Origin: Rhizaria sp. SCN 62-66
Taxonomy: Eukaryota
Direction: 5' to 3'
NCBI GenBank assembly: GCA_001724265.1
Contig: MEDY01000240.1
Location: 1 to 64,000, forward strand
Length of the DNA stretch: 64,000 nt
The notes under the pieces were generated by a model. It saw nothing but the letters and a program-made list of their open reading frames with translations, had not been told where the DNA came from and searched no databases. This document shows, one piece after another, positions 34,956-64,000 of this stretch (positions are counted from its first letter, which is position 1; each line of letters begins with the position of its first letter). Both the position numbers and the translations under genes were made by a program.

Positions 34956-34994
34956 TCACCGGAAGGCCGCCATGGGCGAGGACGCTGTGAAGGA

Positions 34995-35025
<31 letters not shown>

Positions 35026-36068: not shown

Positions 36069-36565
36069 CGTTCGTCGCACTAAAAACGGATAAATGCCGC
36101 GAGATCCCTTTGTTCAATTGAAACAAAAGTGACCACGATATAGCGGTTCTCCGAACAAGAATCCGAACTTCGAAAGGAGGCTCGATGTGAGCCAGAGCCA
36201 GAGAGCCACAGTCTGGCTTCCAGTCGGTCGGTCTGTCCCAGTCTCTGAGTTGGTCAGACTGGAGTCCTCAAAGTCAAGCCGCGCTTTCTCCTTTCGAGTC
36301 CCCGATTAAGAAGACGCTTATCTCGCCCTGTTGCTCCAGTTGCGTGATTTAATTAAGCAAAGGTGGTATATCGATCACCAACATATCTATTTTATCTCTT
36401 AAGCTTCCGCAACATCGACTGGAACCTATCGTTTTTCCGTGCCGACTGACCAAACCTCTCCTCCGAGCATTCACTCACATTTCTACTCTTACGCCCTCTG
36501 TCCTGCTTCACAAACCTGCCCATTTGTCCTGCTGACGCTGCTCCATTGTGCTCAGTGTGTTGCCG

Positions 36566-38128: not shown

Positions 38129-38685
38129 GCAAGATGCTCACGCTTTGAGGATGGTGATGACTTGATGTCGACTGGCTGGAGGTGCGCTCTGGTGGGATGA
38201 GTGGGATTTATTCCGAGTGAATAGAATGACTAGAGTGTTGGTTAAGTGCGAGACTGACTGTTGTGGGGGTTTAAAGCCACGGAACAGTTATGTCTTGCTG
38301 TGATGGTAAACAAGATGTTGTGTTGTGAAGTTTCCAAATCATGTACTACGAATAGTGCAAAACAATACAGATCAAGTGTTAAAAGCAATACGTAGTCCAA
38401 CTCGTCGCATTATTGTCATGCCTCGCGTCGTTAGTTGTTATTGTTATTTGGAGAGTATGACGGTAAATATATGTATGTATTTTACACAAATGAAAACAAA
38501 AAGAAAAAATTACTATAAAGGAAATAGAGATTGAAAGTGGGTGAAAGAGATTGATGATGATTGACTCCTGTGAAATCGGTCACGGCATTCGGGAGACGCA
38601 GTGAGCGAGAGCCCTGCGTGAAGCTACCGACGTCCTGAACTCCGGAGCGTCGGCGCGCGGCACGCGTAGTCGCGGGTGCGCGCGC

Positions 38686-39661
38686 TTAGGCGGACTCGTA
38701 CTCGCCGGATGAGGTGGTGATGGTCTTGGAGCCGAAGCAGCCCTTGATCTTGCCGACCGTGAAGATGCAGCCGTCCTTGGTGAGGCCGGGGATAGCGAAC
38801 CAGAAGTCCTTGTGGGGGCAGGCATCGAGGCCGCGCTTCTCGTACTTCTTCATGCAGACGATGCAGCCGATGGCGACGTAGAGGAAGATGCAGACGAAGA
38901 GGATGATGAGGAAGATGGCGCCGCCGGAGAGGCCGTCGTCGCCGTCGCCGCCGAGGCAGGCAATCTTGGACTTCATCTCGACGGTGTAGTTGCACGTCTC
39001 GGGCTCGTCGACGAGGAAGGACTCGGAGTTGGAGCCGCAGGTGATGAGCAGAGTGGTCTTGTGGGGACGGACGATGAGGCCGCCGCAGCGGGGGGAGTTC
39101 TCCATGTAGATCTTGACACCTACAAGAGCATTTAACGAAATAGAAACAACGCGGGAGGGCAACAAGTTAGACATTAAATAAATCAGGCTTCATGGTATTT
39201 GTGAATAGAGTTGTAGGTTGAGAATGTGATATCTAGACGTAGAGAAACGTACCGCTGGCAGGCTTAGCGGGGTCAATGAGGGAGTAGACGGGGGCGGGCT
39301 CCTCGTGGAAGGAGCCGAGGGAGGTGACGAAGACGGGGGGAGTCTTGTCGTACTGGCAGATGGATCCGTCGGCGGAGCGGCAGTTGGACTCCTCAGCGAC
39401 AGCGCAGATGTTGGCCGTGTAGGAGTAAGTCGGGTTGTCGGTGTCGGTGCCCTTGAAGGTGGTGGTGGCGAGGGTGTTGAAGTCATACTCCTTGCCGCCG
39501 GTGGGCTTGAAGATGCAGCCGGAATCACCGAGGTCGGAGTTCGAGCGGGTCATCTGAGCGAGGAACTTGGTGCGGAACTCGGACAGGAACGACGGCGACG
39601 CGGTGGCGCACGCCGCAGCGAAAGCCACTAGGCAGACAACGACCATCTTGGAAAACTTCAT
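38686..39661 (-). CDS. mannose-6-phosphate-receptor/ATG27-like type I membrane protein, 2 exons, ~280 aa
   Basis: Signal peptide, MRH-like domain (YDFNTL, YTANIC, LLITC, EPETCNYTVEMKSKIAC), TM segment GLSGGAIFLIILFV, PHKDFW..IPGL.KDGC and a YESA tail. Exons 39661-39253 and 39119-38686; intron GTACGT..TAG, 133 nt. Ends TAA. Confidence 0.88.
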
Positions 39662-40321
39662 TCTCCTTGAAAGCTGCGCGCGCGAGTACAGTGGGGATCG
39701 GGAGAGATTCGTCGATAAAAAAGCAGTTCATAGTGAGATGTTGAGAAAATGAGAAGAGACAGAACATAATGACAACAGGGCGGGGCAGGGCAGACGTAAA
39801 ATGAAAGCCCACAATGCGGCTACGTCGATTGGGCACGGCTCGCAGTAGACATGCGATACCTGCGTACACCCAACTTCAGCAGCACTGTAAAAGAATGAGC
39901 AGAACTTTCACGACTCATACGTGTTAATTCAAATTTCTCTACCTCGCTCAAGCACACATACAACGAAATCAAACCAAAAACAGAACGCTCGGCGATGGCC
40001 ACCCAGTTCGACGACGAGCGAGCAAGTGATGACTGTGAGCAGCCTTTTTTCGGTCCGACCCCGTTAGTTTAGCCGCCCAAATCGAAAATTCCCTCAAATA
40101 ACTTGAAAACAAATCAATACAAACATGTGTCGACATATGAAGCAAAATTTATTAGTATCTATCTGTATCTATATCTATATTATCTATCTAAACGACTATA
40201 TCAGCAATGTAACCATGCGAAACACGACTCCAAAGTGTTGGCGCATGACGTGTTCGAAGTACTCATGAAACTCATAACGACGTGTTTGGAGCAGCGGGCG
40301 ACCACGAAAATTGAGCGGCAA

Positions 40322-43300: not shown

Positions 43301-45687
43301 GAGCGCGGCGGCCGCGGACGTGGTGGAGCCGAGCGCGGGCAGGTAGCCGCCCGTCGCGGCCCACGCCGCGGCCTCGCTCGTGGTCATCACGACATTCTTG
43401 ATGTTATACGAGGGCGCGAAGACGTAGATGGCGTCGCAGGCGGCGATGGGAGCGCGCCAGTCGAGCAGCAGCTGGCACGTCTTCTCGCGGAAGCGCTCGA
43501 ACTGCTGGCGACGGATCATCGCGCCGACGCTGCGGGCGCGGCCCGACTTGTTGTCGTGCGCGGCCTGCGAGCCGCCCTGCTTGCGCCTCGTCGTGTACTG
43601 CTGAAACGAGCGGTGGTGCGTGCAATGGGCGCCCGTGAAGAGCGCGGCCGAGAGGCGCCCACCCATCGCCAGCAGGATGAACCACCGGCGCGGACGCTAT
43701 AAGTAAGTAAAACAAACAACAAAGATGGAATCAAGTTAGTGTTATAACTCTGGTTCGTAGGAATGTTACACTATGATTAAGTAATATTAACATTTGATCC
43801 CGTGATTTACTGAAAGACATCTTGGTTTTGGTAAGATAGAACAGAGACGTACGACCGGGAGCAGGGGGTACTGCAGCAGCGCGGGGACGGCGGCGTGGCC
43901 GAGCGCGCCCGCAGTCGCGGTAGCCGCGATGGCGGGGGCCGCCATGGGGGCGCGCGCAGGCGCGGTGAGCTGCGCAAGCGAGACGAGCAGCGCCGCCACG
44001 TCGGCCCACGCGCAGTCGGGCTGCAGCGACTGGAGCGCAAACGCGCGCTCTTTGCTGCCATCGCCCGCCTGTGGCTGCTGCGACAGGGCGCGTGCAAGCG
44101 CGGCGGCGGCGGCGTCGGCGGCGGACTGCAGGGGGAGCCGGCCGCGCCAGTCCGCGGCGGCGACACGGACGACCGTGAGCGCAACGGGCAGGCACTCGGC
44201 ATCATCGGCCAGGCGCATGCGGCCCGCGGTCACGCCAGCGGTCGCTGCAGATGCGGTCGCCGCAGGTGTGCTGGCAGAGCTAGAGCTGGAGCTAGAGCTT
44301 GAGCTGGAGTCGGTGAGAGTGGAGAGCGCGGAGTAGGAGTAAGGGAAGGGAAACAAGGGCGCTGCAGTGGAGTTGTGGGCAGCGACGCGCACACGCAACG
44401 ATACAGCCTGGGAAGATCGAATGGTTTAGAAAGACACAATGCCAAGAATGAAAAGTGAGTTCGTGCGCACAAAGAGAAATATAGACAAGAAACCCTCATG
44501 AAACATCAAAAGTTATTGCTTCAACGCATTCAACGGTGTCTTACCTGGTCGCGTGAAAGTGCAGCGGCACGACGTTGCTCCTTTTTGCTCTGCTTCTTCT
44601 TGTTCTTGCTCTTCCGCCTGGACGCACGACCGGAGCCGTCGTCGTCCTCGTCGTCGTCGTCGTTGCCGTTCTCATCGTCGTCATCAAAGTCGTCGTCATC
44701 ATCATTGTCATCGTTGTCATTGCTGCGCGATTGAAACATAAACGCCTTGCTTTCGTCGTCAACGTCAGCATCTGCACTCACAATGCTTAGCTGTTGCAGC
44801 TGTGCCTGTTGGCGAGTGCGACTGTCGCTTCGGCTACGACTGCGGCTACGGCTACTCTCCCTTACCGCAGCTCCCGCAGAGTCTGCTGCCGCAGAGTCTG
44901 CTTCCGCGCTCGCATCGTCGTCGACGGGGTTGAACGGCTGTGTAGCGTCAACGCCCGCGTCGTAGGCGTCGCAGTCGACGGGCAGCCCCGCCGTCTCGCG
45001 CTCGACCGCCCATGCCGCGAAGCCGGGCTCCGCCGCGGCGCGCGCGGCGGCGGGCGCGCTCAGCGGGGGCTGCCGCGCGGCGTGGCGCTTGACGTTGAGC
45101 GCGTGGCCCGGGGACTTGATGTGCGCGCGAAACGCCAGCGCGGTGGGGAAGCCCACTGCACATTTGGAGCAATCGAACGCCCCGGTCGCCAGCGCCGCGC
45201 TCGCGCTCGCCGTCGGGGCAGAAGCTGCGGGCGTGGGAGCCGTCGTGCTTGCGGTCGCCGGGCCAGCAGCAGTGGAGTTTGGGTTGCGCGGGGTGTTACG
45301 GGCGAGCAGAACCGAGTTGGCGTGGGGGGATACAGACGCAGTCGCAGCGGCAGGGGCGGGGGCGGGGACGAGGGCGCTCTTACCAGCGCTCGCAGCGAAG
45401 CCTTGCCCCGCAAAAGTGGCGTCAGCGGCAGAGGGGGCGGCCCCCAAGGTGGTGTTGCTTGCGGTGCAAAAGGGCGCGAGAACGGCACGCACGACGGGGG
45501 CCGTGACTGTTAGCGAGGTGGCGCCCAGGCGGATGGACAGGTCGTTGGTGCCGTCCAACATCGCCGTCAGCGCGGTCACAAACCAGGCGTCGTGAATAGA
45601 GTCCGCGGGCGCCGCAAAGCCGCGGGAAAGCCCTGGGGTCGGAGCCGGGGGCGGTTTTGATGCCGTGGGGGAGCGCTTGGGTGGCAT
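40322..45687 (-). CDS. ANKZF1: ANKZF1/Vms1 (VLRF1 tRNA endonuclease, ribosome quality control), 3 exons, ~1690 aa
   Basis: C2H2 finger CSKC...RAHIKSPGHALNVKR, VLRF1 WFILLAMGG...HRSFQQYTTRRKQGGSQ, ankyrin TPLHLA..LLAAGADP and C-terminal CAHC...YKYCSTKC. Exons 45687-44545, 44407-43853 and 43696-40322. Ends TAA. Confidence 0.92.
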
Positions 45688-46032
45688 GGAGCGCTGCGGA
45701 GTAAGGCGGAAAGTGAATTGTGGTGAGATCGAGTTGAGATGCGGACAGCGACGTATATGTGCACGTGACAGCGCAAGAAACAAAATGCATAGTTACATGT
45801 ACTCGTTTTCAGATGTATAAGTTGCGCACGTAGCCATTGACGGAATGTTGACGGAGAGTATCGTGTTTGCGAAATCGTGGTCAGAGGGAGGGTGGCAGAG
45901 AGAGCGGCAGGCTCGCTCACGGTCACCTGACTGGCCGACTGTGTGGCTGGCGGGGAACCACCCTTAGGCGCAGAGAGATGTCGCGTGATTGGGAGAGGAA
46001 ATTTGTTCCCCGTCTGTTGGATCACATTTAAT

Positions 46033-46789
46033 ATGGTACGTAGTATAGTCTCTCGAGACTCTGTTCTATTTGACTATTTCATTGACACTCGTAATCAACA
46101 CCGGAAATAGCCGCAGGACCTCCGCGCATTGTGCCCTCTCGCTTAACTCCATTGGCCTGACGGCTCCACCCGCGGACCTCTCTGCATTCAGGATACAGGC
46201 GATATTTTGATACGATGCACCGTGCTTGTAGCAGGTCGTTTTATGGATAACCCAGTGACTGAGTTTCAGTGCCGGAGCCCACCACATCGACCTTCAAATT
46301 GACTCTTTTTTGGATCCACCCATCTCATCATGCTATTCGTTCTCACCCTCCCGTTGCTCTCTCTCCTTTTCTCCGTTGATCTAACTGCTCCATCGCTCTC
46401 GTCTTGTATGTGCACCCCGCTTGCTTGCACGTGTTTAGCCCAGCAATAAGAGTCTCGCTGTCAAGAAGCTTCTTGGCAAGAAGGACAAGCAGAACCGCCC
46501 CGTACGTTAAGCTCCTCAAACCACTCACACAACCTTGCTCTCCCGAATCTGGCTAACTGTGCTATAGCTCTTATGCACCAATCTCACCACTTTTCTTCCT
46601 CTTCTCCTGCTCTCCTTCGTGCCCCTTTGCCTCCATCTTGGCCTTGCTGTCTGGTATGGCTGCTCTTCTCCCTTGGACTGATGCTTTCCCCCACCACAGC
46701 TTCCCCAGTGGATCCGCCTCCGCACCGGCAACACCGTCCGCTACAACTCCAAGCGCCGCCACTGGCGCCGCACCAAGCTCGGCATCTAA
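46033..46789 (+). CDS. RPL39: 60S ribosomal protein L39 (eL39), 3 coding exons, 51 aa; missed by the ORF track
   Basis: ATG (46033-46035) | GTACGT..TAG | 46439-46501 [21 protein letters not shown] | GTACGT..CAG | 46700-46789 [32 protein letters not shown]. This gives the canonical 51-aa length. Confidence 0.95.
46110..46290 (+). ncRNA. candidate intronic structured RNA (possible H/ACA snoRNA)
   Basis: Lies within the longest intron of the window. Stems GCAG/CTGC, TCCGCG/CGCGGA and ACTGA/TCAGT, and ACA at 46284-46286. No clean H box seen. Confidence 0.2.
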
Positions 46790-47367
46790 CTTAATTGTCA
46801 TCGTCGCCGTCGTTCACTGCAACGGCGTCAACCTCAATGTCATTGAAACACTTGATACCACTGTCGGGGGTGGACTTTATGTGCCTGTATTCACCTAACA
46901 ATACAAACTAAATTCAAAACAAGTACAGCTAAGTTTTATCATACTTCTCCAAACACTACCGAGCATATGCAATCTTTCTCCGCGTCCCAGCGAAACGCGT
47001 ATTCTGACTAGTACTTAGTACATGTTGCAGCATGCATTCAGCAAAAACCCTCCTGAAACCAGAAATGTTTTCAATTCCATCTGATATGTGCGTGCGCAAC
47101 GCGTTTGCCGCATCTACAATTGTCTGTTGTGAACTATAGTTGGTGTTAATTCCATTTTTTCTTCATGTCTGACTGTACTACCGATTCTAAGCGGTCCTAT
47201 CTCTATTTTCCCTGTCTAAATGTGCTCCCCTTTCCTGCGCTCACGCCCTCAAATAACATCTTCACTGTTATCGTCCAATATGTATATTGTTGTCAATGTT
47301 GGACATGTGCAATATGTATAAATAACTCATTTCTTGTTAATTTATATTTGTATTCTATAGAGCCAGG

Positions 47368-48114
47368 ATGGAGGAAGAAAGTCTCCGTATTCGCACTGCA
47401 GCTGCCCCTGTGCTATCGCTCGCAGAGCCAAACGTCACCCATTTGCAAGCGCTCAAATACGCTATCTCAACATGTTCTGCCATACATGAGTGTGTCCCGC
47501 TGCTATGCGATGCAGGAGTTATTGGTGCGCTCTTGCGCCAGCTTGGTGCAGTCAGCGATGACGACGGCGAGGCAAGACAGCGACTTGATATTCTCATCGA
47601 ACTTTTTGCACTTGTCACTGGCCTTTAGCTCGACTCAGACTTTGCCAAATCACGGTTCATTCCATGTGGAAGCAACGCACTCGCCAATCATAACGCATCG
47701 GAGCTGTTTGCCTTACTAGCCCTCCGCTTCAGTTCCAACGAACGCGTGCTCCTTCTCCTGTTGGGCCTCGCGCGCGCTGTCGCGATGTCGCCAGCACTGG
47801 CGCCCAGAGCCAGACGCAACACGCTTAGCCATGTGCTCGCCCTCATGCAACAGAACAACTACAAGGAGCAGCAGCAACTGCTGCAGCCGGGGCAGCAAGG
47901 GCCAGCTGGGGAAGCTGACGCTGAGGGCGCGACCTGTTGCTTTCGCCTTCAAGAAATGCTTTGCGGGACAGTAACTCAACTCTGCTTCCACGGCGACCCG
48001 CCCGCACCCTCCTCGTTATGTTTTGAGGAACACTGCAGTGCGAGCAAGTGCTCCTTAGGCTACAAAGGATGCTGGTCAAGTATCGATAACCCGTCTTTTT
48101 CGAACTCAAATTGA
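47368..48114 (+). CDS. ARM/HEAT-like helical protein, ~248 aa, with in-frame TAG at 47626-47628
   Basis: Track ORFs 47368-47628 and 47746-48114 are in the same frame and separated only by one TAG. LLCDAGVIGALLRQL is ARM-like. Ends TGA. Confidence 0.55.
47626..47628 (+). other. in-frame TAG (putative sense codon)
   Basis: ...GTC ACT GGC CTT TAG CTC GAC TCA GAC TTT...; the frame continues to TGA at 48114. Confidence 0.55.
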
Positions 48115-48255
48115 AACTTAACTATATTTTAGCATCATGTTGTGATCTTGTGGAAGGCTTAAGACTTTGTATCGTGTTCATATTATTACTAGATAGTTTT
48201 TAGATTATTGTAAAGTGGCTCACACCATTCAGAATAAAGACCGGTTGAGTTTTCA

Positions 48256-51200
48256 TTACATGTGTTCCGCGGCAGCCATAAACTGTTTCTCCACGTCGAT
48301 CAGCGCCCCCGTCCTTCGCAGCACCCGCACCGTTCCATTCGCCATGCCCACCACAATTGCGCCGGTGCGCCGACACTGCGCCACCGCGGTGACCGCGACA
48401 ACCTCCTGCCGCGCCACCAGCGCCGCCGCCGCGGCCGCGACCGGGGCGGGGGCGGCGCGCGCCGCTGCGAGGCGGGCGGCCGCGGAAGGCAGCGGGGCGC
48501 GGAAGTCCCAGCCGGGGCCGCAGCTGGCCGTCGCGCGCGCCGCGGGCAGAGCCTCGCCCGTTACGACACCGGCACCAGCGCCAGCGCCGGTGGCGGCGGT
48601 GGAACCAGCAGCAACACTCGCGCCAACGCCCAGAGCACCAGCGGCAGCGTCGGTTCCATCATTGGCGGTGAAAATGATGTTGTTGGCCGCCATCGAGTTG
48701 AGGTGTGAGACCGACTGCGCGAGCACGAGGCCGGGACCACCGACCTTGACCGAGTGCAAAGGAGTAACCGAGAGCTGTGGTAGCGCGCGGGGCGGGCCGG
48801 CGTCGGAGTGTGAGGCGCTTGCAGCAGAGCGGGGAGAATAGCCACCAGGCTTGGGGACGAAGGACTGTCCCGAGACAAAGCCAGCGCTGTCGTCGCAAAC
48901 ACAATCAGCCGCGCGATCGCGCTTCCGTTCGTGGACAATTTGTGTTGCAGATAAAGCGATAGCGTCGCGCTTGAGGGTTGCTAGCGCGAGATCTGAATCG
49001 TAAGTAGAAACATCGATACCGTCAGCGGGGGTGTTAATAGTCTCCACTATTTTCGAGGCAGCATGTGCATCGTCTGAGCTATGCAAAGCACAGCATTGGC
49101 CACACAGACTGCAGTTGTAATAAAAGGTCTCAGTTGCGGTCGCCGGTGATCCAATAGACGATCGAGGGGCAAATGGCGCGGACACTGGGAGTGTGCGAAG
49201 GAACAGTAGAGATGCTGCCTCAAGAGCAAGCGCGTTCAGAGTCGATGTGCTCACAGTCGCAGTCCCAAGCGAAACTGAAGTAAAGCCCGTGTTGGTACCC
49301 GAGATCGAGCGCGCACGGGAGCTTGATTGCGAGTCGTCGTCTCTGTCATCCTCAAGCTTGAGCTCGAATTCCGAGCCCGAGCCCGAGTCAGACTCGGAGT
49401 CGGAGACACACGCAGTATTGCCGTGAGTGTCATCATCACCGCTGCTGTATTCGTTGCCATCCTCGACAGAAGCAGCGGCAACAGGCGAGGCTGCCACGGC
49501 TGCAGTTTCTTTGTCAGCAGAAGTGGGGGCTGACGGGGTCGCCAGCTTGACTTCGTTGTCTTCAGAGTCGCCAGCGCTAACCGCAGCGGAGACTGAGGCG
49601 GTAGTGGCAGAGGCTGGGCGAGTGAAAAACATGTCCAGCCTCGACTGCTTCGGCAGTGGCTGCGCCTGCCTCTGTGGATGTGGCGGCTTCGGCTGGGAGT
49701 TACTCGTACTTGAGCTGGTCTTGCTTGAGCTGGCCGCCTCAGTCTTCACGGTCGCGGACGCAGCGCTGCCACCGGAAGGGCTGGCTGACTTGGGACTTTT
49801 GTGATTACCTGTGTTAATAGGGCTCACTTTAGTGTCCAACTCCGATTTCGTCAAACCGCTTGACGCATTCAAGCGATGATTGTGGGCGGGTTTTTCGCCG
49901 CCTTGACCGTATTCGCTTTTGTTGTCGTTGCTTTTGCTCCTGGCGCCGAGGTGGCTACTGTGGTAGATCGCAGCCCTAATATACGGCGTAAGTGCTATGG
50001 CAACTGCGCGCAGCACGCTACCACCGCCGTTCTCGCGGAACAAAGACAGGGCCGCTGCAACCGTGCGGACACGGCAGCTATAACAAGCCCCCGCGGCCGC
50101 AGCAGATTTTGCAGAATTCGAGAATGTGTTCACGCTTTCTCCGCCAAAGCTGTTATTTGTGTCGAGTCGAAGATCAGCAACGTTGCCTGTGGAGCTGTTG
50201 CTACAAGGAAGCGACGCAGGCTGGGGCGGGCGGCACTGGTGTTGTTGGTGATGTTCCTTATGTTCAAGTTGAAATTGCTGTTGTTGTTGCATAAATATGG
50301 TCTTAGCAGAAACAAAGTCCGTTTTCACTGTTGCATCTGAAACAGTCGATGTGGCACTGACTTTGTGAGAATTGCTGTTTCCGTCAGTATCAAACTGACG
50401 CATGCGCGCGCTTTGCTGTTGACCTTGTTTTAGTTGCTGATATCGCTGCTGAAACATCCGCAATGTCGCTTGTCCGTTAGCACTGACATCACCCAGCACG
50501 CGAGTGCTCGGAGAGCTGTCGTCATCATCATCAGTAAGATCAGACAGTCCGTCGACGCTGCGGTGCGTCGACGTGCTCTTCGAGTTGCTCTGCCTTTGGT
50601 CGTCATAGTCGTCGTCCTCGTCGTCGCTGCCACTGCTGCCATCACGCCGGTGCCTGTTATTGCTAGTGAAAACCCTGTGAAATCCACCGTTGCCGACTTG
50701 CACGCGACCCAAAGTCACGTTTGAGCCAGACAGTAACTGTGCGCGCTTCCCATTGGCGAGTCGCAGTGTGTTGTTCAAGGCGACATCCGCATCATCAGCC
50801 AAACCGCCGCTGCTGCGCCAGAGGGCAGTCGCAACAAGCGGTGCTGCCGCAGTCGCCGCTTGGGTCAAAGCCTCAGCAGGCATTGTTGCACTAACGTTGA
50901 CTTGAGTAACGTCACTATTCGTGTGTTTGTTACGACCGATGTCGTGGTCGCATTTCGCGAGAAGATATGACAGTAGTTTCTCCCCAACCAACCCAGCGCC
51001 GTTGCCACCGTGCCCAGCCGCGGCCGCAGCAGCAGCGACCTTGGCGCCCCGACTGCTGTTTTGGCCGTGGCCGTTGCCGCTGCTCTTGCTCTTCGCGCTG
51101 GCGAGGCTGTCCATCGTGCGCGCGCGGGAGAGCGCAGTGACCAGGAGCAGCGCGGCGCGCAATCGGGGCAGCGCCGCGCGGAGCAGGCGGGTGGCCTCTA

Positions 51201-54200
51201 CCTGCAAGGACACCGCGGCCGCACAACTGACGCCATCAACGCCGGCAGCCTTAGCGTTGTCGCCTACGGCAGCACTCGTGTCGTTGCAGTCGAGAACGTT
51301 GTTATTGCAACTGTTGTCTGTTGTTGAGGTGGGGTGATCACGTGACAAGATCGGGGCCGTGAAGACTGTCTGCTTCGGTGCGTACAAGCTTAGGCCAGCG
51401 CTGCTACCGCCACTGCCCCAACCACCACTCGCGTTCACGCTGCGAGAATGTGTGTTTGTGCAGGGCTTGAATGTTGCGTTTAGACTTGAGGCAAAACCTG
51501 TCGCGCCAAAAGGTGATGATGCTACGGCCGTCAAAGCTGTACCCGAACCGGGGTTGCTGCCGTTGCGCAATGATGAAGCCTTCACACTGGCTGCCGTAGC
51601 GGCAGTACTCAGAGAGCTTAGCAAGTCGTCAAAACTAGAGTTGCTGGCGTTGGTGCTTTGATTGGGACTGTCTAAAGTCTCTAAGCGGGCGACAACGCCA
51701 AAAAGCCCTGCATGTACATCATCAGCAGACTTTTCGCCCAGAGCGTCGACAGGGTTAGTGATGGGATTAAACGAGTCAGTCGCGGAGCTAGAAGCGGGCG
51801 ATGCTGCTGCTAAAGCTGAAGCCGATGCGGCCGAGACCAAGGCAGAGTGCGAGCCTGTGACAGCGGCAAAGTGCAGCCAGTTAGTATCATCTCCGAACGC
51901 GACCACACTCAACCCGCTCCGGCCATTGAGGCTGTGGCCACTGCCCGCCGCAGCGCCGCCGGCGAGGCTCACGAAGGAGAACTTGCGGTAGTTGTCGCCG
52001 CGCGCGAGCGGCATGCGATGCTGCGGCGGCGGCAGCATGAAGCTATGCGCGGGCCGGCCGGAGCGCAGAAAGGACTCGATCAGCAGCCTGTCGCGCGCGC
52101 GGGCCTGTTGCTGCTGTTGCTGCTGGAGCTGTTGTTGCTGCAGCAAGGCAATAGTCTGGGCTTGCGTTAGAGCTGACGCCGGTAAACGCGGTTGCTGCTG
52201 TTGTTGCTGTTGTTGTTGTGGATGCTGCTGATGTTGTGCCTGGGATTGAACACTGCTTCGCTCGAAAGCACGGGGGCGGGAGCTCGAGCGAAGTGCCATA
52301 TCGTGCAAGTGCCTCGCGGGCGCCGGCGTCGGCGCGTACAGACTCGAGACGGCGCCCGTGGCCAGGTCAAACGCGATCAGCGCAAGCCCCGCGGTTTGGG
52401 CCACGAGCACCGACGGCCGCTGCGGGTGCGTCGCCGCGCTAAGAACGCCAAAGCCCGCGGAGGCGAGCGCTGCGGCCGCCGTGGGGGAGAGCAGCGGCGG
52501 GGGTGGCAGCTGGCCGGGACCGAAGCTACTGGCAGACATTGCCGCCGTTGCCGCTGTCGCTGATGTGAAGGCCGATAAAGAAGCGCGAGAGGGGGCTGCG
52601 GTGGCGGTGACGGCTAAGTCGGTGAGCAGGCGACGGCCGCAGAGCCAGGAGCGGCTTGACTTCAAGCTGTCGAGAGCCATGACGGCGGAGACGGCAGCTG
52701 CAGAAGCTGCTGCTGGCGCCATGTGAGCCGTATCATGCGCTGCAGCGGGGGCTAGGTGACTGTGAGAAGCTGTGTTGAGTTTACTGTGATACGAGGCAGG
52801 TGGGGGATATACGCACAGTTCCACACGACGGGGATCGACATCAGTAGCATCAGCTGAATCATTGCTCTTTGGAGTGAAGCCGTCATTATTCATAGACTTT
52901 GATTGAAAGTAAAAGTAGTCGTCATCGTCGTCATCATCGTCGTCATCGTCATCTCGCATGTTCTCTTTCTTGCCCCCCGTCGTACCGCAGCCGCCGCCAC
53001 CACCGCTCTCCAGGTACAACGCGCGGCCCGCCCGCGCCTCCCGCTCCGCCCACTGCTCCCACGCCACGGCTTCGGCCACAGCGGCCTCCAGCGCCAGCGT
53101 CGGCAGGTGCAGCCCGCCGAAGCCGCCGCCGCCCGCGCCAGAGCCCGCGGCAATGACCGAGAGCCCGAAGGCGCGGAGGTCGAGCACGTCCAGGTGCCCG
53201 CTCGCGGTGACCGTGAGCAGCGTGTGCGAGCTCGACGACAGTAGCGGCGCGACGAGCGGGTGCGACGCCGCGAAACCGGGGCCATGGCTCTAGACAGCAT
53301 TAGAATGACTGTGCGACAGGCTCGTGTGCGCTGCGAAGGCTTTGTTGTAGCTCGAACTGAAGATGTCTACCTCGCTACCGCAGTGCATATCATGCCTGCT
53401 GCTGGCGCTGGACGGCTCTACATCTGCGTCTGGGAACACGACCGAGACGATGCGTTTGTCGACGGTGGTCGTGCAGGTGGAGAGCGATGAATGCAGCGAT
53501 TGCGGGCTCACGCCCCAGACAGACATCAGCGACGAGGCCGCCGCGGAGGCGAACGCAGTCGCGGCGGTGCGCGTGCTGGCGCTCGCAGCCGCACTCGCAG
53601 AGCTGGTGGCGTTTGAGGTTGAAACAGGCGATGACAGACCAGAGTCTCCAGATGCAGTTACGTTTGCAGTCGCTGCGGCTGCTGCGGCGGCAGAGGCAGC
53701 CTTCTCCGCCGCGCTTGCAGCCTCTTTCAGAGCATACTGCGTCCAGCTGTCGACGCTCGGCGCGATACGGTAGTAAATACCGGAGCCAACGCTGGTCACG
53801 GAGGACGTAGTGCTTGACCGGAGCACATTGTGGCAGCTGGAGGCGACTGCGGTAACGCCGTTAAGCGGCAAGTTAAGCCGCCAACTTGGTGGGGCGGCGG
53901 CCGTGAGAGCGTCAGACTGCACCGAGACGTGGGCGGCGTTATTGTTTGTGCTGAAGTTGCTATCCGCGCTGGCAGTGTGGTGCGTGTGAGTGTGGCTGTT
54001 TGTGCGTGTGTTCATGTTGTTGTCTGAGAATAAACTGTACTCGTCATCGTCGTCATCGTCGTTAATCGCGCTACTGCTGCGGACAAATCCGCCCCGAGCG
54101 CCTACACCGCCGGTATAGTTCGTCCCCGCAGCAGAATTAGCACGGATGCCGGCGGTGCTGTTCATTGCGCTATTACTGTTGCTGTTGCTGTAGCGCGATG

Positions 54201-56931
54201 TAAACACCGGACTCGACCGCCCACTGCTCACACCGGCGGAGTTCGCGCCGCCCCCGCCGCTGTTGTTGTTGTTGTTACCGCCAAGCAGCAGCCTGTGCGC
54301 AGTGCTCACAGTCTCCTTGTAGGCGGGCATGCGCACGTCCCAGACGAGCGTGTGGCCGCCCTCGGTGCCCGCGACGACAACGGCGGGCGCGTGCGGCGTG
54401 GCGGCTAGTGCTGTGAAGCGCGTCGTTGTGTTGTACAGCGAGGACGGCAGCAGCAGCGTCGTGTACGGCCGCAGCGACATTGTTGGCGCCGTCGCCGTCG
54501 TCGGCGCCGCGCTGGGAAAGCGCACCGTGACGGTGCCGTCTGCGCGATCGCCCACGCTGCCAAATATATCGTCATCATCATCACTATCATTGCTGTCGTC
54601 GTCTTTAACATGAACGGAGTTGTTGCTGTGGGAAGTTGCGAAAGAAGCGTTCTGGACAGTCGCATCAATAACATTTTTGTAGTCGCAGGCCGTGGTATAT
54701 GCTGACTGTGATGGCGCGAGCAGCTGGGAGCTTGTGTTCGCAACCGCCTTACCAGTCGCGATATTCAAGCACTGCTGATGGGTACTAGTAACACTGTTCG
54801 TGTTTGCAGTGTCAGCGGACGCGTTATCGACAATGGACATCAGTGAGTCCCACCGGCTATGCTCACAGTCACCAGTTAGATCAGCGCTACCTCTTAGAGA
54901 CTCGCTGTGACTGCTGCTTAAAGCACAATCGTCAACAGTCGGTGCAAGCACGGCGCCGCGCGAGGCGACGAAGCGCAGCAGCGCGCCAGTTGTCACCACG
55001 TCGGCATCGATCGCGGCGACCGCGGCAACAGGAGACGGTGCAGCGTCAGATGATGCATTTTGCGAAATTTGTTGTGTCGATTCGCGGATTCGCGCCAGAA
55101 CAACACGTGAGTCGCTCTGGGCACTGTTTAAACCAGGTGATGTTGTTGTGACTAAACAACGCCTCTTGTTGTGCGAGAACAGTTGGGTATCGTCGTCTTC
55201 AATGTTGTCGTCTTCGTGCGCATCGTGAGCGACGGTGACGGCGGTACTCAGTAGCAACCGCCTCCGTCGCTGCTGGAGCTTCTCTAAACGAAAGCCGTGC
55301 CTCTGTCGCTGCAGCTGCCCCACGCTCAACGCGTAGCTCGACGCCACGTGCGCGCGGCCGCTTGCGACCGCGAAGCCCTGCACGAGCCGTAACGTCTCCC
55401 GGCTGCCGGCGCCCACAACGCTCGTGCGCCCGGCCAACACCGCAGCGCCGGACGCAGCCACAGAGCCCTGACCGCTGTGGTGACCAGGTGTGAGTGTCAG
55501 CATAGAGTTAATGTTGGCTATCGGGTTAGATAGGAATGATATGTCGTAAATATAGGCCGCTTTGGACGAAAACCCGACGACTGCGAGCAAACCGCCTTTG
55601 TCTGCTCCAAAGCCACCAGTGCAAGCACTTAGGTTAGAGCCAAGTGTAGCACTGATATTTTTATCTATGTTTGAGTCAGCTTTACCACTGGTGCCGCTGG
55701 TTGTGTTGCTGTAGCGAGGGGACATCCCCGTAGCAACAACAGCAGCGGGTGCGGGCAAAAAGCGCATCGCTGTGACTTTGCTGCCAATGCTAAACGCAAT
55801 CGCCGCAGTCGCGCCTGCGCTGGCAGCAGTGCCCGCATTTGTGACAGGGCTGGCTGCAGCATTAGTTGCAGCCGGGCCTGAAACCAGCGGCTTCAGCGCC
55901 TGGCTCGCCCCGGTCTCAGCACCGATCGCACTTGCGCTCGCAGCGCTAATACTGCTGTTGGGATTATGCGACGGGAATACAGCGCTGTTGAGCGTCGCCT
56001 CAGCGTGTTCGCTGCCGTCCCAGCCGTTGTCCTCAACACTGCATTTGCCCTTAGCAGTCGCGTGACGAGTGCGGAAACTTGTACCAAAGCGAATTGAGTG
56101 TTCTTTTAATACAGTCTCAATCGCGCCTGCAGCCAGCTCGCGCAAAGTCACAGAGCTACGCCGTAAACCTGCATTGTTGGCACTGGCTGCACTCCCACTT
56201 ACACTCGAGACTGAGGTACCTACATTGAAGTCAGTCCTGCTCAGACCACGACTGTTATCGTCGCCAATGCAGCCATCCTCCGCGGCGGCGGCGCGGTGCA
56301 CGGCCGTGGCGAGCGGCGTTGCGGCGATCGCGAGCCCGGGCGCCGCGTGCGTGTCGGCAAGGAAAAGCAGGTGCCGTACAACGGCGTTCTCGACGGCGGC
56401 GGCGACGAGGCGGCCGTCGCGCACGCCGAACTCGCGCAGTAGCGACACAACGCGGCCGCAATTCAGCGCGGAGAGGTCCAGCTGCGCAAGCACCTCGCTC
56501 GGGGGGCAGAACGGGAGCGCGGAGGCCGCGGGCGCGGAAGCAGCGGCGGTGGCGGAGCTAGAAGAGGAGGGGGGAGAGCAGAGGAGCTCGCGCTGCACCA
56601 CGAAGTCCATGTGGGTACGCGCGTCGCCAATAACCAACTTGGATAACGCGTTGGCAACGTGGGTAATGCGCGCGCAAAAGTCTTCGTATGCATTTTCAAA
56701 TGAATACACCTCGATCAAGCCCGCGTACGTCGCAGATGCCAGGAGGGAGCCATCCGGCGAGAAATCCAGCGCGATTACGGGGCTTTCATCAGCGCCGGAG
56801 AAGCGCGACGCGTTTGACAAGCCACGTGGGGTAAAAAACCATGGCATAAGACGGTATTGAGAAGCAGCGTCTACTGCGGAAGGGAGAGGCGGGCCGAATG
56901 GGACGGCGGCGTCATGGCCGCAGATGTCCAT
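48256..56931 (-). CDS. giant WD40-repeat protein with low-complexity inserts, ~2891 aa, with in-frame TAG at 53290-53292
   Basis: Blades VIALDFSPDGSLLASATYAGLIEVY, FTALAATPHAPAVVVAGTEGGHTLVWDVR, LLTVTASGHLDVLDLR and VTAVAQCRRTGAIVVGMANGTVRVL. The two track ORFs are in the same frame, separated by a single TAG. Ends TAA. Confidence 0.75.
53290..53292 (-). other. in-frame TAG (putative sense codon)
   Basis: ...TCT AAT GCT GTC TAG AGC CAT GGC CCC...; the frame continues ~1680 codons to TAA. Confidence 0.6.
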
Positions 56932-57253
56932 CAGGAGCCTCTGCGGGGGCAGGGATAAACAGATATAAACATGGGATTTAGACAATATAATTACATACTA
57001 TAGTATGAAAGTCACAATCCTATTCAATAAAGTTGGATCATTTCAATAGACGGATCCTGTGATGTACATCACTCACTGCGATGAGGGTGAACAGAGCGCG
57101 AAAGCAAGACTCGCCGCTTGCCAGTCGCTGGTGGTTGCTGGCAGGGGGGTCTCCCAACGGCTCGATCGGATCGCGAACTTTGTTTTCAAATCTCGTTGCC
57201 TTAACATCCGTGTAATTGTCTGCCAGGCAATTGCTTCGGATTTTTGTGTAAGT

Positions 57254-60200
57254 ATGCAAACACAGACATTTTCCCTGCCTCCCGGAGTGCGTGGGGACGT
57301 CTTGGGTGAGATCGCCCTGACGATCGACCGCGTGCAGTGGGCAGTCAAGGGCAGCAGCAAAGTTGGTCTTCCCGCAGGGCCAGTCTTTGTCCGCGCGAAA
57401 TGGTGGGGTGACGAAGGCGTGAACGGCGCGTCTATTTTCCTCCCTGCTACATACCCGTTGCGTCCTTCACAACAAGACACTCTCAAAAACACCATTGTGT
57501 ACGGTGTTCGTGGCGACATCAGTCGCTACCTTTCTGGTTCGTCCCTCTTCTTTCTCTTGCTTCATGTAATGACAACTTCCACTCTGACAAATGAGCACAT
57601 ATAGTTCACTAAATGTGTTATTTTATTCTCACAATGCGTTATACTCTGGCTTGTGTTTATCTTTGTCCGAAACTCTCTCCTCGCAGACATGAAGCTGCTG
57701 GTGTGCGACGTCTTCCCCCTCGAAGCCTCCTTCGACGCCGCGGCCGTGCGCCGCGAGAGCTACAAGAAGGCCTCCCGCATCCTATGGCCGAACCGCCGGC
57801 TGCCCGCGACGCCGGCGCCCGCGCCGCTGGCCGTGGCCGTCGCCGACCTCACCACCTTCGTCGACCTCCTCTCGCAACGCGACAGCAACACAAGCAAGGC
57901 CAACGCAGCCAACGCCACTGCTGCTGCGGATACAGCGCTGCCATCGACGAGCATCTGCATTGACGTGCCGATTGTGCAGGCCACGCGCGTCCTGGGCCAG
58001 CTTTCGCTGCACCTGGCATTCACGCCCTTGTCGGGGCTGCCGCAGTTGCTGGCCCCGGGCCCCGCCGCCGCCGCCAAGGCCGCCGCTGCCGCCGCTGCCG
58101 CGAAGGGCCAGGTCAGGGCGGGCGCTGAGGCCGCGGCCGCGCTGGGGGCGGCGCAGGAGCACCCCTTCGACCAGTTCCCTACTGTAGCTACTGCTGCTGA
58201 TCCCGCCATCAACACTAACACTTCCGCTGCGACGGCGGCGGTGGCAAGCGCACCTCGCGAGAGCGCCGCTGGCGGCAACGCTGCTGCTGCGGCTGCTGGT
58301 ATGTGGCGGCCGCAGTCGCCGACGTTGCAGTCGCCGTCGCCGCGGGCGCCTCTCAATGGCCAAGGCCTCCACGATGTCTCCACACAGCATCAGCAGCACC
58401 AGCAGCAACTGCAGCAGCAGCAGCAGCAGCAGTATACTGGGAGCAACAACGGCAGCATGACCGAGACGGCGAACCTGCTCTTGACCCCCCGCCCTCTCAC
58501 CCAAGGCCAGCAGCAGCAACAGCAGCAGTATGCCCAGCAGCAGCAGCAGTATCAGTCTCAATCTCACTACAGCAGTGACGCGCAGCTGCTGCAGTCCCCC
58601 CAGCCCCAGCATCTCTCCTCGCAGCTCAGCAACAACAACAGCAGCAGCGGCGGCATCAACGTCAACGCAAGCGTGTCTGTGAGCAGCCGCGACCGCGATC
58701 ATGGCTGCGACCGCGAGCGCGCGTCGGCTTACGGCGCAAACCTGCCGCAGATGCCCCTCCCTCAGCCCCAAGACCAACAACAGCAGCAGCAACAACAGTA
58801 GCAGCACGCAGCGAGCTCTAGCTCTAGCTCAAGCGCGAGCGCTACCTCTGCCTCAGGTGCCCGCTCTGGCACTGGCTCTGCGCTGGACTCGCTGTTCCCG
58901 CCGATGCCGCTGAGCGCAAGCGCGCACCCCGACCTGCTCGCCCTGCGGCTGACCGTGGAGCAGGCGTCTCTCTTCGCCGCCGATGCCGCACTCGCCTCGG
59001 CAGTCTACACGGGCCGCCTCCCCGCACCCGCGCTCGCGCCCCCGCCCCTCGCTGCGCTCTCCGCGGCGGCGTCCGCCGCGCCCGGGTCGATTGGCGCGCG
59101 CGCGGCGGCGGCGGCGACGTTCGCGACGGGCTACGTCTACGCTACGATCACACCCTGCCCCTCGGCGCTGGCCACCGCCGCCACCACCGCCGCCGCGCGC
59201 GCCGCCGCCGACGAGGGCTACAGCAGCAGCGTTGCGTTTAGCAACGGCGTTTACGCGCCCGCGCCGCCGCTGGCCGCAATCCCGCTCGACTCTGCGCCGT
59301 TCGTGACGCCTCTCGTGCCCGCGCGGCCGCACCCACGCTGGCTCAGCACCAACACAGTTCCGCGCATCTTCTCCGCGCACCTGCCCGCAGCGCTGCGCGG
59401 AATGCGGCTCCGCTTCCGCGTGCACTGGTGCCCGCCGCACGTCGCGGCGATGCTCCGAGTCAGCGGCTACCTGCCGCCGACCGTGGGCGGCCATAGTACG
59501 GACGCGGGAGCCGAGTCGACTGGCTCTAGCCCCCTCGACGCGCACACCCGCGACGCCACCGCCGTGGCCGTGACCGTGGCCGGGGTCGGCGCCGCGAGCA
59601 CGACGTGCCACGCCACCGCCGCCGCCGCGGGTGCAGCGGCCGGCGCCTATTACGGCCCCCACCAGCAGCAGCAGCAGCGCGGGGGGCTGGGGCGCGGCGG
59701 ATGCCTGCGCCCGGCGGCATGCGGCTGCGGCCACTGCGGCTGCCCTGTCTGGGCCATCTACCGCCACGGCAGCAACTCTAGCTCTCGCATCTCCGATGCT
59801 GACCCCAGTAGTGCGAGCAGCAGCGCAGCGGTGGGTGCGGCGGGTCCTGTGTCGCGGCTGCAGCGGCTGCTGGACTCGGCCACTGCCCCCGGCTCCGGCT
59901 CTGGCTCTGGCTCCAGTTTTGGCTCTGGCTTGGGAGCGAGCGCTAGCGGCGGCTCGAGCTGGGGCGGCTACAGCATCGTCCGCGCCGACGCCCGCCCCCT
60001 CACGACGAGTGCCTCTGGCCCCAGCCAGCACGGGGGCTCGCTGTTCGCGCACGCCGCCGAGGGACTGGCGACGCAGTTGGCTACCGCGCTGCGCGGAGTC
60101 GCCGCCGCGCGCGCCGTACCGCCCCTGCTCTCCCCGCTGCCGCTGCCCGCTGTCACCACGACGACGACTGGCGGCGCGAGCGGCGGCGATGTGGAGTGCG

Positions 60201-63200
60201 TGGCCGACACGGACGGTGGCCGCGGCGTGCGCGTGTACGCGCGCGTGCTCATCGATGACAACCTCTGCGACCGCGACTACTACATGCGCACCGCGACCGC
60301 CGCCGCCAACGCCAGCAGCGGTAGGAGCAGGGCCGCAATGTGCAAGCGCGATAGTGACGAGGTTGACGTGCTGTGCAGCAAGTGCTGGCAGCAGAGCACG
60401 ACGCGCCTCCCCACCGCCGCCGACCTCGCCGGCGTCGTCGGAAACGGCGACTCGACTAGCTTTGAGGTGCTGTGCGCGTACTGCAACGCGGCGTCGGCGA
60501 GCTTGCTCCCGCTGCTGCCCGCCGCAGCTGTGGACGTGCGCGCGCTCAGCGTGACACTGGGCGAGGCCGAGCTCACTCTCGACGCCGCCGCCGTGGCCGG
60601 TGTAGCCAGCCTGCAGGAGCGCGTGCGGCTACACTACCTCACCAAGGAGCACAACAAGAACAGCAGCAGCTATGGCAACGCCATTGATGACGACGGCAAG
60701 GACGCTGAGCCCAAGGTCGGGGTCAGGGTGCTCGCGTCGACCATCCTTACGCTCAAGGAGCCCGTCGCCCCCTGTCCCACTCATAGCGGCAGCGCCCCCC
60801 GCTGCCCCGCGCAGCCCGCGCGGCCCGCGGCGGCGGCTGCGGAGACGACAGGCTCTTTGGCCGTGACGGTTACTCTGGCGCCGCTGGAACACGCGGCCGC
60901 GCTGGCGCGGCTCGAGGCGACTGCCATCCAGGCTGAGCGCCGTAGTGACGCGGCCGAGGCGGGGGCCGTCGCGCTGCCGGGCGTGTGCGTGCCCATGCGC
61001 CTCACCGCCGACGCCGCGCGCATGCACCGCGCTGCGCTCAGCGACGCGCTCAATAACAATAACAACAGCAGCCCCAACAGCAATAACAGCGTGAGCATCA
61101 CTCTCGAGACGCTGCTGAGTAAGGTGCTGCCGGCGGTGCGCGCGCAGGCCGCCGCCGCCGCCGCCACGGCCGCCGCGGTCGACCATCGCTCTCGCAACCC
61201 CCTCAACCCCGCCTCTGCCGCTGCCTCTGCTTCTGCCGCGACAGCTACAACTGCAGCGGCGGCGACTGGGACGCACGCAGCACCCGCGGCCACGAGTACC
61301 CCGCGCGTGCCCGTCGCGGTGCCGGGCCGCGTGCTGGTCCCGTGGCCCCGACTGACGCTCAGCCTCGCCGACCTGCGGCTGCCGCTGTCCTGGGCCCGGG
61401 CGCCCGCACTGGCCGCGCTCGCTCTGAGCTTCTTCAGCGTCAGCGTCTCGCACCCCGGACTCGCCCCGCCGCGCCAGCCCTGGCTCGTGCCCGCCGGCAG
61501 CGTCGGCGCGAGCGCCAGGAATGTCGGTTGCGCTAGCGGCAGCAGTGACCCCGGTGTCGGTGGGAGCGGCGGCGGGCGCGCGCTGGCGCTGCAGTCAGGC
61601 TGGCGGCCGCCCATGGCCACGCACGCCGTGCGCGGCGACATCGTCGTCGCCGAGTACCCCAGTCAAACCAGCCAAGCCAGTCAAAACATCAACGCCAGCA
61701 GCAACGCGGACGACGCGAAGACTGACAGCTCTAGTGTTGAAGTCGCCTCTGCGAAAAGCAAGACTGCTGTCGCCGTTGCTGGCGCGACTGCCACCGCGCC
61801 AGTGCCCGTACCCGTGCTCTGGGTGCCTCTGCGCGCGGCCACGCAGCTTACCCCGCTTGCGGCCACTCCCTCCGCTCACGGTCACGGTGAAGAGATTATG
61901 GTGACTATGAGCGAGCTGCGGGCCACGCTGGCCGCGCTGCGCCGCGCACCACTGCTTCTCACGGTCACCATGTCGGACTCGCCATTCGCGCCCATCTCCA
62001 CAGCAACCACTGTCGAGGCTGACGGCGACTGTGCGGACAACGGCGACACCGATGGCGAGAGTGGCGACTGTGAGCATACGACGCGTGACCACTTGCAGCC
62101 GCGGCAGCAAGTGACCGTGAGCGCTCTGGACGGCTCCATCGCGCTCCCACCCGCCCACAGCCGTTCCGGCGCGCACGGCCCCGGCTACGGGCCCGCGCAC
62201 AGCACCGCCGACGCCGCCGCAGCCGCGCCCACGGCCACGCCCGCGATCGGCTCGCTGCAGGACCCGTGCCCCGGCGTGCCCGTGGACTTCGACGCTGTCG
62301 CTTACCTCGCCGCGCGCCCCGGCACGTACACCGGCTCCATGGGGACTTACACCGGCGACGGCGAGGGCGCGGAGGGCTATCAGTACGGCAACGGCGTGCC
62401 TGCGCAGTGGGACGCGCGCGGGCGCCGCGTGCACAACCCCTTCGTGCGGACCACCGCGCCCTTTTCCGCCGCGCCGCTCCGCAAGACCGCGGCCGCGGAC
62501 AAGCTCGCGCTCCACAACAAGAGCAACGCCTCCGCGGGCGTCGGCAACGGGGGCTTTCACGGCAATGGCAACGGCGGGAATAGCAACGCGGGCATCATGT
62601 CGGCCGCTGCGGGTCACTCCGCCTCCGGTGCTAGTTCTAGCTCTAGTTCAAGTGGCGCTTCTGTGAATCCCCCCGGGATGCTGTACGGCCGCCGCACCGG
62701 CTACGACGTGGCCCCTGCGCACCTGGCACGCCTCGCCGACACCGTGCGCGACTGCGCCGTCCGCCGCGGCCACGGCCTCGGCCACGGTGACGGCGACGGC
62801 CAAAGCGGGGAGGACGAATGGGCTGTGGACGCGGCGACCGCGGCCGACACGCTCGACATCCACCACCACGACGGCGACGGGAATGTCGCTAATACTGGCC
62901 GTGAGTTCGCAACTGTGGCCGCGCGCGGCGGACGTCTGCTGAAGAACACTGACTTCGCGACCACTCAGCATGTGTACGACGTCATCACCGGCGCAACCTA
63001 CGAACGCAAGCTCCGTGGCGAGCAGCCACTGCGTTCTGTTGGCAGCAGCGGCAGCAACAGTAACGTGACTGCAAGCGGCGTCAAGACGGGCAGCAAGGCC
63101 ATCGCCGACTGGCTCTGGAAGGAGAAGGTGTGCGCCAGCGGCGTCTTCACCGTCGCCAACGCTAACGGCAGCGGCAGCGGCAGCGACAACGGCGCCGCGA

Positions 63201-64000
63201 TCACTGCTGCCAGCACTGCTAACAGCAGCAGCAGCAACAGCAGCAGCAAGGCCAGCAGCGGCGCCAGCGTGTGCAGCGGGTCCAACACGCGCGAGATCGC
63301 TACGTGCGCCGTCTCCGCCAGCGAGCTCGCGGACGCGCTCGTCGCCTCCGTGGCGATGCGGCTTAACTTGAAGGACCCGCGCCAGCTCGACCGCGAGTAC
63401 GGCTTGACTTTCATCTCGGACCCCCGTCGCCAGCAGCGCAGTACAAGCGTCTCCTCGCAGTCCAGCGGCGCGAGCAATAGCGACGGCAACGCCGCGTTTG
63501 GCGTGAACGCGCTCAGGCGCCGCGAGACCGCGATGGCGGTGGCGCTGCTGGCGGCGCCGCCGTCGCCGCTCGACGCCGCCGCGGCGGCCGCGGCGAAGCG
63601 CGAGCCTGTGTGCGTGGGCGCGCTCGCGCGGGCCGGCGTTGTCGACTACACCGTCGCGCCGTGGGCCGCGGCGGGCGCGGGCGGCGAGAGTGAGACGAGC
63701 AAGGCTGCGGCGGCCATCAACGCGCTCCAGCAGCAGCAAGGCGACGACGGAGCCGCTGTGGCGGCCAACGAGGAACGCAAGCCGGGCTGCCCTGTGACGA
63801 CGCATAAGCCGCTGAGTGAGGCTGCGCTGGTGCGGCTTGACTTCAAGATCGACCCCTATGTAGCCGACGGTAGCAGCGGCAGCAAGAGCGTTGAGTCGGT
63901 GACTGCGGCTGAGGAACATGAGGCGTGGGAAGCTTACCTGCAATCGCAACAGCCGCCACAGAAGCCGCAGCAGCAGAAGAGTCAGCTCAACAACTCAATG
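57254..64000 (+). CDS. C2CD3: C2CD3-like centriolar protein (3' end outside window), with in-frame TAG at 58799-58801
   Basis: N-terminus SLPPGVRG..LTIDRVQW..VRAKWWGD..YLSDMKLLVCDV..LGQLSLHLAFTPL parallels the C2CD3 N-terminal C2 domain as I recall it. Intron 57537-57686 (GTTCGT..CAG) restores YLSDM. After the TAG the frame appears open for 1733 codons to the window end, because no closed ORF is listed in the track despite in-frame ATGs. Confidence 0.8.
58799..58801 (+). other. in-frame TAG (putative sense codon, likely Gln)
   Basis: GAC CAA CAA CAG CAG CAG CAA CAA CAG TAG CAG CAC GCA. Confidence 0.7.

Follow-up and report, generated by a model that had tools for sequence, protein, structure and literature searches.

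Nuclear genetic codes that give UAG and UAA different meanings have been described for just a few lineages, as far as the available sections of PMC5304391 and PMC11687900 go. In Iotanema spirale (Fornicata), UAG stands for Gln, and UAA and UGA are the stops; 204 in-frame UAGs were counted in 126 genes, many of them at conserved Gln columns, gene ends comprise 104 UAA against 15 UGA, and the GTS motif of eRF1 carries a T32G change (PMC5304391). In the rhizarian exLh (Sainouroidea), which is known only from contaminating or environmental data, UAG stands for Leu, with 384 in-frame UAGs in 71 genes, Leu at 95% of hyperconserved sites, and 56 UAA and 15 UGA ends (PMC5304391). Other UAG-only cases are Scotinosphaera (Ser), and Protocruzia tuzeti and the phyllopharyngean ciliates (Gln or Leu) (PMC11687900). 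The subject of the present work is a stretch of 64,000 nucleotides (contig MEDY01000240.1 of Rhizaria sp. SCN 62-66, positions 1 to 64,000; hereafter the window), in which an ARM-like orphan open reading frame (ORF), a giant WD40-like gene and a C2CD3-like gene carry in-frame TAG triplets, here called TAG1, TAG2 and TAG3 respectively.

The original prediction, made from the letters of the window, was that this DNA uses UAG as a sense codon, or allows it to be read through, with UAA and UGA still acting as stops. This is supported in part by the analysis presented here, through the continuity of the coding sequence, the recurrence of the TAGs in other sequencing runs, an in-frame TAG in the mitochondrial carrier of a related organism, and the lack of TAG at gene ends. 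We suggest that UAG is probably read as sense in this lineage, either by full reassignment or as a leaky codon read by a near-cognate tRNA.

Coding sequence across the in-frame TAG codons

Coding potential was assessed using a codon-usage score trained on other genes of the window. Intergenic, untranslated (UTR) and intron DNA scores between -0.2 and -0.8, with a GC content of 0.32–0.46. The introns of the window are approximately 130–240 nt long, with a donor of the form GTAYGW, an acceptor of the form YAG and a GC content of about 0.38–0.39. Some of them are in frame, contain neither TAA nor TGA, and are open if TAG is sense (57537-57686, approximately 39121-39251, and 23431-23595). Introns can thus pass as open frame, and any census of TAG in this DNA therefore needs the prior removal of introns. 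The gene at 38686-39660, for example, has an intron (at approximately 39121-39251) with a TAG at 39233 inside it, and the intron at 23431-23595 of the PhoPQ_related gene has Pfam profile positions 1–166 on one side and 170–367 on the other.

The giant WD40-like gene (48256..56931, minus strand; a weak WD40 match) runs from an ATG at 56931 to a TAA at 48256-48258, and has 2891 codons if TAG2 is read through. TAG2 (53290-53292, minus strand; context cat tct aat gct gtc TAG agc cat ggc) lies in frame and links stop-free stretches of 1235 and 1677 codons. In this frame the coding score is 0.28 before TAG2 and 0.38 after it, and the GC content at third codon positions (GC3) is 0.77 and then 0.83. 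The surroundings are GC-rich, with no AT-rich stretch, no GT..AG signal and no GTAYGW-type donor. Public gene calls split the gene: P0003 stops at TAG2, and P0004 begins 133 codons further on in the same frame. These 133 codons, from TAG2 to the next in-frame ATG (52894..53289, minus strand), are open, with a score of 0.38 and a GC3 of 0.83, the score of intergenic DNA being -0.3 to -0.8. A protein ending exactly at TAG2 has been called on four contigs, and a polyA-RNA contig of X5 covers 52921-53270, just downstream of TAG2, with no differences. When 1200 residues spanning TAG2 were compared with 1.84 billion representatives, the only matches were the organism's own two split products, and a metagenome scan with the WD40-like gene gave 591 pattern matches and no relatives. 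An AlphaFold2 (AF2) prediction for 361 residues around TAG2 is uninformative, with a mean predicted local distance difference test score (pLDDT) of 40.8.

The C2CD3-like gene lies on the plus strand. Its exon 1 (57254..57536) matches the Pfam family C2_C2CD3_N over profile positions 2–75 of 145 (E 6.4e-13), and is followed by an in-frame intron of 150 nt (57537..57686; GTTCGT..CTCGCAG, GC 0.39) and by exon 2 (57687..64000), which extends past the window edge and has a GC3 of 0.73–0.92 throughout. No Pfam family was matched in exon 2, so that only the N-terminal domain of C2CD3 is shown. TAG3 (58799-58801) lies in frame within a polyglutamine (polyQ) run (caa caa cag TAG cag cac; Q8-X-Q) and joins 398 codons to at least 1733 open codons, the coding score in that frame being 0.33 on the near side and 0.39 beyond it, and GC3 stays at 0.77–0.83. 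The 34 codons directly after TAG3 are open and coding-like in this frame, and the surroundings are GC-rich, without an AT-rich stretch or a GTAYGW-type donor. An exact look-up of the TAG-truncated product in the protein collection was empty, possibly because another start had been called. A fourth in-frame TAG, at 57602-57604, is the only in-frame stop of the 150-nt intron; since it sits inside an intron, it is not evidence for a sense reading. There is no other stop and no frameshift in the 2891 codons of the WD40-like gene or the more than 2100 codons of the C2CD3-like gene.

Four runs were compared with positions 45000-64000, giving 32 listed pieces, and among those that cover TAG sites no letter other than TAG was seen. 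TAG1 is unchanged in the X4 contig (46753-48295), which comes from another study and carries single-nucleotide polymorphisms (SNPs) and an indel elsewhere, and TAG3 is unchanged in the X2 and X3 contigs (both 58441-59548). The TAGs are real DNA, and beyond TAG2 and TAG3 coding runs on without a change of frame.

TAG1 is the doubtful case. The ARM-like ORF (47368..48114, plus strand) runs from an ATG at 47368 to a TGA at 48112-48114 and has 248 codons if TAG1 (47626-47628, plus strand), at codon 87, is read through. No Pfam family was matched, and there were no homologues among 6938 candidates. The coding score is close to zero on both sides, at -0.17 before TAG1 and 0.01 after it, compared with 0.28–0.39 in the other two genes, and the single-sequence AF2 model is confident for residues 1–84 only, that is to just before TAG1. 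For these two reasons TAG1 is not counted as robust. It is worth adding that the X2, X3 and X4 contigs share an 8-base insertion behind 46789, and that X4 has a 1-base deletion at 47155 and approximately 17 SNPs over the stretch. At 46789 and 47155 the differences lie in non-coding DNA, upstream of the ARM-like ORF, and represent variation between populations.

The original prediction had assigned exactly one in-frame TAG to each of the three genes, with coding sequence continuing past each of them and with no internal TAA or TGA. The three TAGs are confirmed as real and as lying in frame, but the C2CD3-like frame holds a second, intronic one; the continuation holds for TAG2 and TAG3 but is doubtful for TAG1; and TAA and TGA, which are absent from the exons, do occur in frame within introns, to which they are confined (the PhoPQ_related intron at 23431-23595, listed above among the open ones, is also recorded as an example).

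A carrier of a related organism and the ends of genes

The mitochondrial carrier of the window (Mito_carr; 15450-16619, minus strand) has unnamed relatives at 75, 65, 62 and 60% identity. A metagenome scan gave six loci, L001 to L006. The carrier of L002 is 100% identical and belongs to the same organism as the window; L001 is from the 75% relative; L003 and L004 are from a 65% relative, L004 being a piece of 21,134 bases from a contig of 311,324 bases in the JGI collection which holds eIF4E, RPN2 and DUF5648 genes besides the carrier; L005 is from a 41% relative, on one 3.4-kb contig; and L006 is a distant fragment. Genome-contig scans with the carrier alignment and with a 3717-residue ORF gave no matches, and neither did a viral-contig scan.

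The L005 carrier and that of the window fall into one orthologue group: the former has 40–45% identity to P0005–P0009 and at most 31% to other carrier groups, the inserts of the group are present together with a GTACGT intron, and its neighbour is a homologue of the window gene at 25031. Within GC-rich exon sequence, the L005 carrier has a TAG in frame at 2734-2736 (gcg cag cac TAG gca gtg). Three Mito_carr stretches were matched (E 1.7e-62), the third of which spans the TAG, and the 63 residues 3' of the TAG alone match Mito_carr positions 47–94 of 96 (E 1.3e-10). What follows the TAG is the last helix, a part that a carrier requires; the TAG itself is located in a variable loop. An in-frame TAG inside a conserved domain is thus found in one of the four distinct carriers that were read at the DNA level. 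The two inserts of the clade's carriers, one around LT.EQLERxS between helices 2 and 3 and one around LP..VEW before helix 5, are absent in other groups, and offer a convenient way of recognising the clade in metagenomes.

The ends of genes were counted after exons had been merged, whereby 25031-34624 became a single gene, as did 45792-40322. The window has 13 gene ends, spanning 663..48258, of which seven are TAA (663, 15450, 22354, 38126, 38686, 40322 and 48256, given as the lowest coordinate of the triplet), six are TGA (3763, 17147, 22007, 34622, 34956 and 48112, likewise) and none is TAG; the end at 17147 depends on an inferred last exon. The original prediction had counted 14 ends, all of them TAA or TGA. 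The lack of TAG is confirmed, and the number becomes 13 because several of the supposed genes are exons of one gene. ORFs of the window that end in TAG and have any coding score are all either antisense to a larger gene or end in an intron. The well-defined ends of the relatives are similar, with no TAG in six: TAA in the L004 eIF4E, carrier, RPN2 and DUF5648 genes and in the L001 carrier, and TGA in the L005 carrier. TAG is therefore absent from all the gene ends examined, 13 from the window and six from relatives. If TAG had a 20% share of ends, the probability of none in 13 would be 0.055 (0.8^13), and that of none in 19 would be 0.014 (0.8^19), although the sample is small. Among 50 eukaryotes, a rising GC3 was accompanied by more use of TAG and less of TAA, according to the part of PMC9348620 available. 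Given this trend, seven TAA and no TAG in GC3-rich genes is odd in both respects.

Reading of UAG and alternative explanations

On the basis of these observations, we hypothesise that UAG is no longer a terminator in this lineage and is decoded as an amino acid, and that genes end in UAA and UGA. The ribosome would pass TAG2 to produce one WD40-like protein of 2891 residues, and TAG3 to produce one C2CD3-like protein of more than 2100 residues, and the carrier of the related species would likewise be read through at its TAG. Decoding might be carried out by a tRNA with a CUA anticodon, or by a near-cognate tRNA after weakened recognition of UAG by eRF1. As to the meaning of UAG, Gln would be the simplest guess: a single transition turns CAG into TAG, and TAG3 lies within polyQ. 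The assignment to Gln in the original prediction is not established by this one polyQ site, and Leu too interrupts polyQ runs in the same giant genes. The rarity of UAG as a sense codon would fit an early stage of reassignment, or a codon that is inefficiently decoded. It is possible, and we put this forward with more reserve, that the whole uncultured clade, of at least three species-level lineages (carriers 41–75% identical) and recurrent in wastewater and bioreactor metagenomes, shares such an early-stage code. UAG would then have been cleared from gene ends, with TAA favoured despite the GC-rich genome, and would serve as sense about once per 6,000–9,000 codons.

A number of observations weigh against a sense reading. 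The robust in-frame TAGs are rare, amounting to two in 17,391 codons (counted over both giant genes together with the remaining modelled exons), which is 10–100 times rarer than in known UAG-reassigned lineages, for which the available part of PMC5304391 gives 1.6–5 per gene. None is present in the Pfam-supported genes of the window (NOG1-like, Mito_carr, DUF4200, PhoPQ_related and Vms1-like), nor in the 5,102 codons of the five long ORFs of L004. None of the TAGs lies in a conserved column that can be aligned, the WD40-like gene and the ARM-like ORF being without relatives and TAG3 being located in polyQ. No tRNA gene was detected in the window or in loci L001 and L003–L006, and there were no Rfam matches there. 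Among the 32 pieces listed, no RNA piece covers any TAG, and TAG2 is covered by no piece of any kind, although a lack of cover is evidence neither way. The X2 and X3 contigs look like one data set, perhaps not independent of the source. The TAG of the L005 carrier comes from its single contig of 3.4 kb, and an exact look-up did not find the truncated product in the protein collection, possibly because another start had been called. Finally, TAG1 may be the genuine stop of an 86-residue protein, as the AF2 model would suggest.

One rival explanation is the standard code. TAG2, TAG3 and the L005 TAG would then be recent nonsense changes, in young pseudogenes or in tolerated null alleles (for example of cilium genes, with flagella being lost), and the absence of TAG from 19 ends would be due to chance or to a lineage-specific bias among stops. 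The original prediction had argued that random mutation would not always give TAG. This argument fails: CAG, GAG, AAG, TCG and TAC prevail in the codon usage, and TAG therefore dominates random nonsense, making up 66–68% (approximately 67%) of single-base nonsense changes given the usage of the 17,391 codons, so that three TAGs out of three have a probability of about 0.30. In-frame TAGs are also very rare and missing from the conserved genes of the window, both robust window cases are in fast-evolving, low-complexity orphan or cilium genes, and the value of 0.055 for the window's ends is not extreme. However, neither a frameshift nor a second lesion is present in the 2891 and more than 2100 codons of the two genes; codon bias is intact on both sides of the TAGs, and TAG1 is common to populations that differ by SNPs. 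The standard code also calls for a further independent nonsense change, the third, in a relative's carrier that looks essential, and for no TAG in 19 ends of GC3-rich genomes, where its use normally rises; and another cilium gene of the window, that with DUF4200, is intact. On balance we consider the standard code unlikely.

It might also be that UAG is still a stop, every TAG marking where one gene truly ends, with a second gene behind it that happens to share the frame. The public gene callers split the locus in just this way, into P0003 and P0004, and an 86-residue ORF ending at TAG1 is present in the protein collection, on one Logan contig; AF2 confidence in the ARM-like ORF ends at residues 84–86. 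But true intergenic DNA here is AT-rich with a negative score, whereas the 133 codons after TAG2 are open, in frame and coding-like, as are the 34 codons after TAG3. Moreover, the same frame three times over has a prior of (1/3)^3, and the post-TAG part of the L005 carrier is the second half of a carrier repeat, which cannot stand alone. This arrangement of genes is therefore improbable. Slightly less probable still is that unconventional short introns remove the TAGs before translation, or that U-to-C RNA editing changes them, or that the TAGs are errors shared by the assemblies. In-frame TAGs at 57602 and 39233 do sit in ordinary introns, and TAG1 occurs in CTTTAG, which is similar to acceptors seen in the window. 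Against this, there is no GTAYGW-type donor or AT-rich stretch near TAG2 or TAG3, splicing from the sole GTAT donor upstream of TAG1 would break the frame, and the TAGs recur in other runs. Nuclear U-to-C editing is not known from organisms of this kind. The reading of UAG as sense thus remains the explanation that we favour.

The host organism and the known UAG-only codes

The DNA of the window is eukaryotic, with ordinary cis-introns, by which a trypanosomatid origin is excluded. Its GC content is 55–72% across the 64 kb, with long ORFs separated by AT-richer spacers; poly-Ala, poly-Ser, poly-Gln, poly-Asn and poly-Asp are abundant in the long ORFs. The same DNA is present in bioreactor, wastewater and activated-sludge metagenomes from five studies. 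The closest named matches to the window carrier are from oomycetes, at 33–36% identity, and the RPN2 of the relative represented by L004 has 29–41% identity to named proteins (Morus, Tetradesmus, Scenedesmus and Eimeria). Comparison with the Atlas gave no placement. The clade is divergent and uncultured.

Several other genes of the window deserve mention. The NOG1-like GTPase (663-3374, minus strand) has an N-terminal extension of 114 residues, and the Atlas clusters closest to it are those labelled 'plastid-localised Nog1-like (PDE318)', with proteins from haptophytes, plants and diatoms. Extension and clusters together may hint that the protein is organellar and perhaps of plastid origin, and hence that the ancestry is algal. 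A protein of the PhoPQ-activated pathogenicity-related family (PF10142; 22354-24480, minus strand, one intron) is found here in a eukaryote, and the patchy spread of this family may help in placing the taxon. The gene at 36536-38128 (plus strand, 530 codons), in which no Pfam family was matched, has by far the top codon-usage score of the window (0.64 per codon) and is probably highly expressed, judging from this score. The DUF4200 gene has two introns. A TAG triplet stands in frame immediately 5' of the start ATG in both the NOG1-like gene (3375-3377) and the DUF4200 gene (19522-19524), both on the minus strand; chance alone would give approximately 0.2 cases of this kind in a set of about 12 genes.

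If the sense reading is correct, this would be a further UAG-only reassignment, unusual in its GC-rich genome, its preference for TAA and its very low usage of UAG. It would add an independent origin, in a GC-rich, intron-bearing organism outside the ciliates and without UAG terminators, and could show a transition state of stop-codon reassignment. Were the early stage common to the clade, the clade would be a living intermediate of reassignment, and a codon capture of TAG is unexpected in a GC-rich genome. There would also be a practical consequence: public gene calls already split genes at TAG, as with P0003 and P0004, and the predicted proteomes of such metagenomes would be wrong wherever TAG occurs. 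The literature search, which did not extend to supplements, found no activated-sludge eukaryote or eukaryotic metagenome-assembled genome with a reassigned stop of this sort.

The comparison with described systems, for which only the cited sections of the sources are drawn on, shows both likenesses and differences. As in Iotanema, UAG alone is found in frame and never at the end of a gene, UAA is the more frequent stop (seven TAA vs six TGA in the window), and Gln is plausible; unlike in Iotanema, there are only two or three in-frame TAGs in approximately 17,400 codons, conserved columns contain none of them, and the genome is GC-rich and of an unrelated or unplaced lineage. The window resembles exLh in that the proposed change would affect UAG only and is seen in environmental data only, and Leu, which interrupts polyQ, would be possible in the window genes as well. 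It differs in that no link of the organism to Rhizaria was seen in the sequences analysed. With Scotinosphaera, Protocruzia tuzeti and the phyllopharyngeans it would share the uncoupling of UAG from UAA; the first of these is an ulvophyte and the others are ciliates, whereas the window organism lacks a ciliate-style genome architecture. Finally, a stop codon is tolerated inside genes here as it is in Condylostoma, in Blastocrithidia and in programmed readthrough. In Condylostoma and Blastocrithidia, however, the same codon still terminates translation at the ends of genes, whereas here TAG ends none of the 19 genes.

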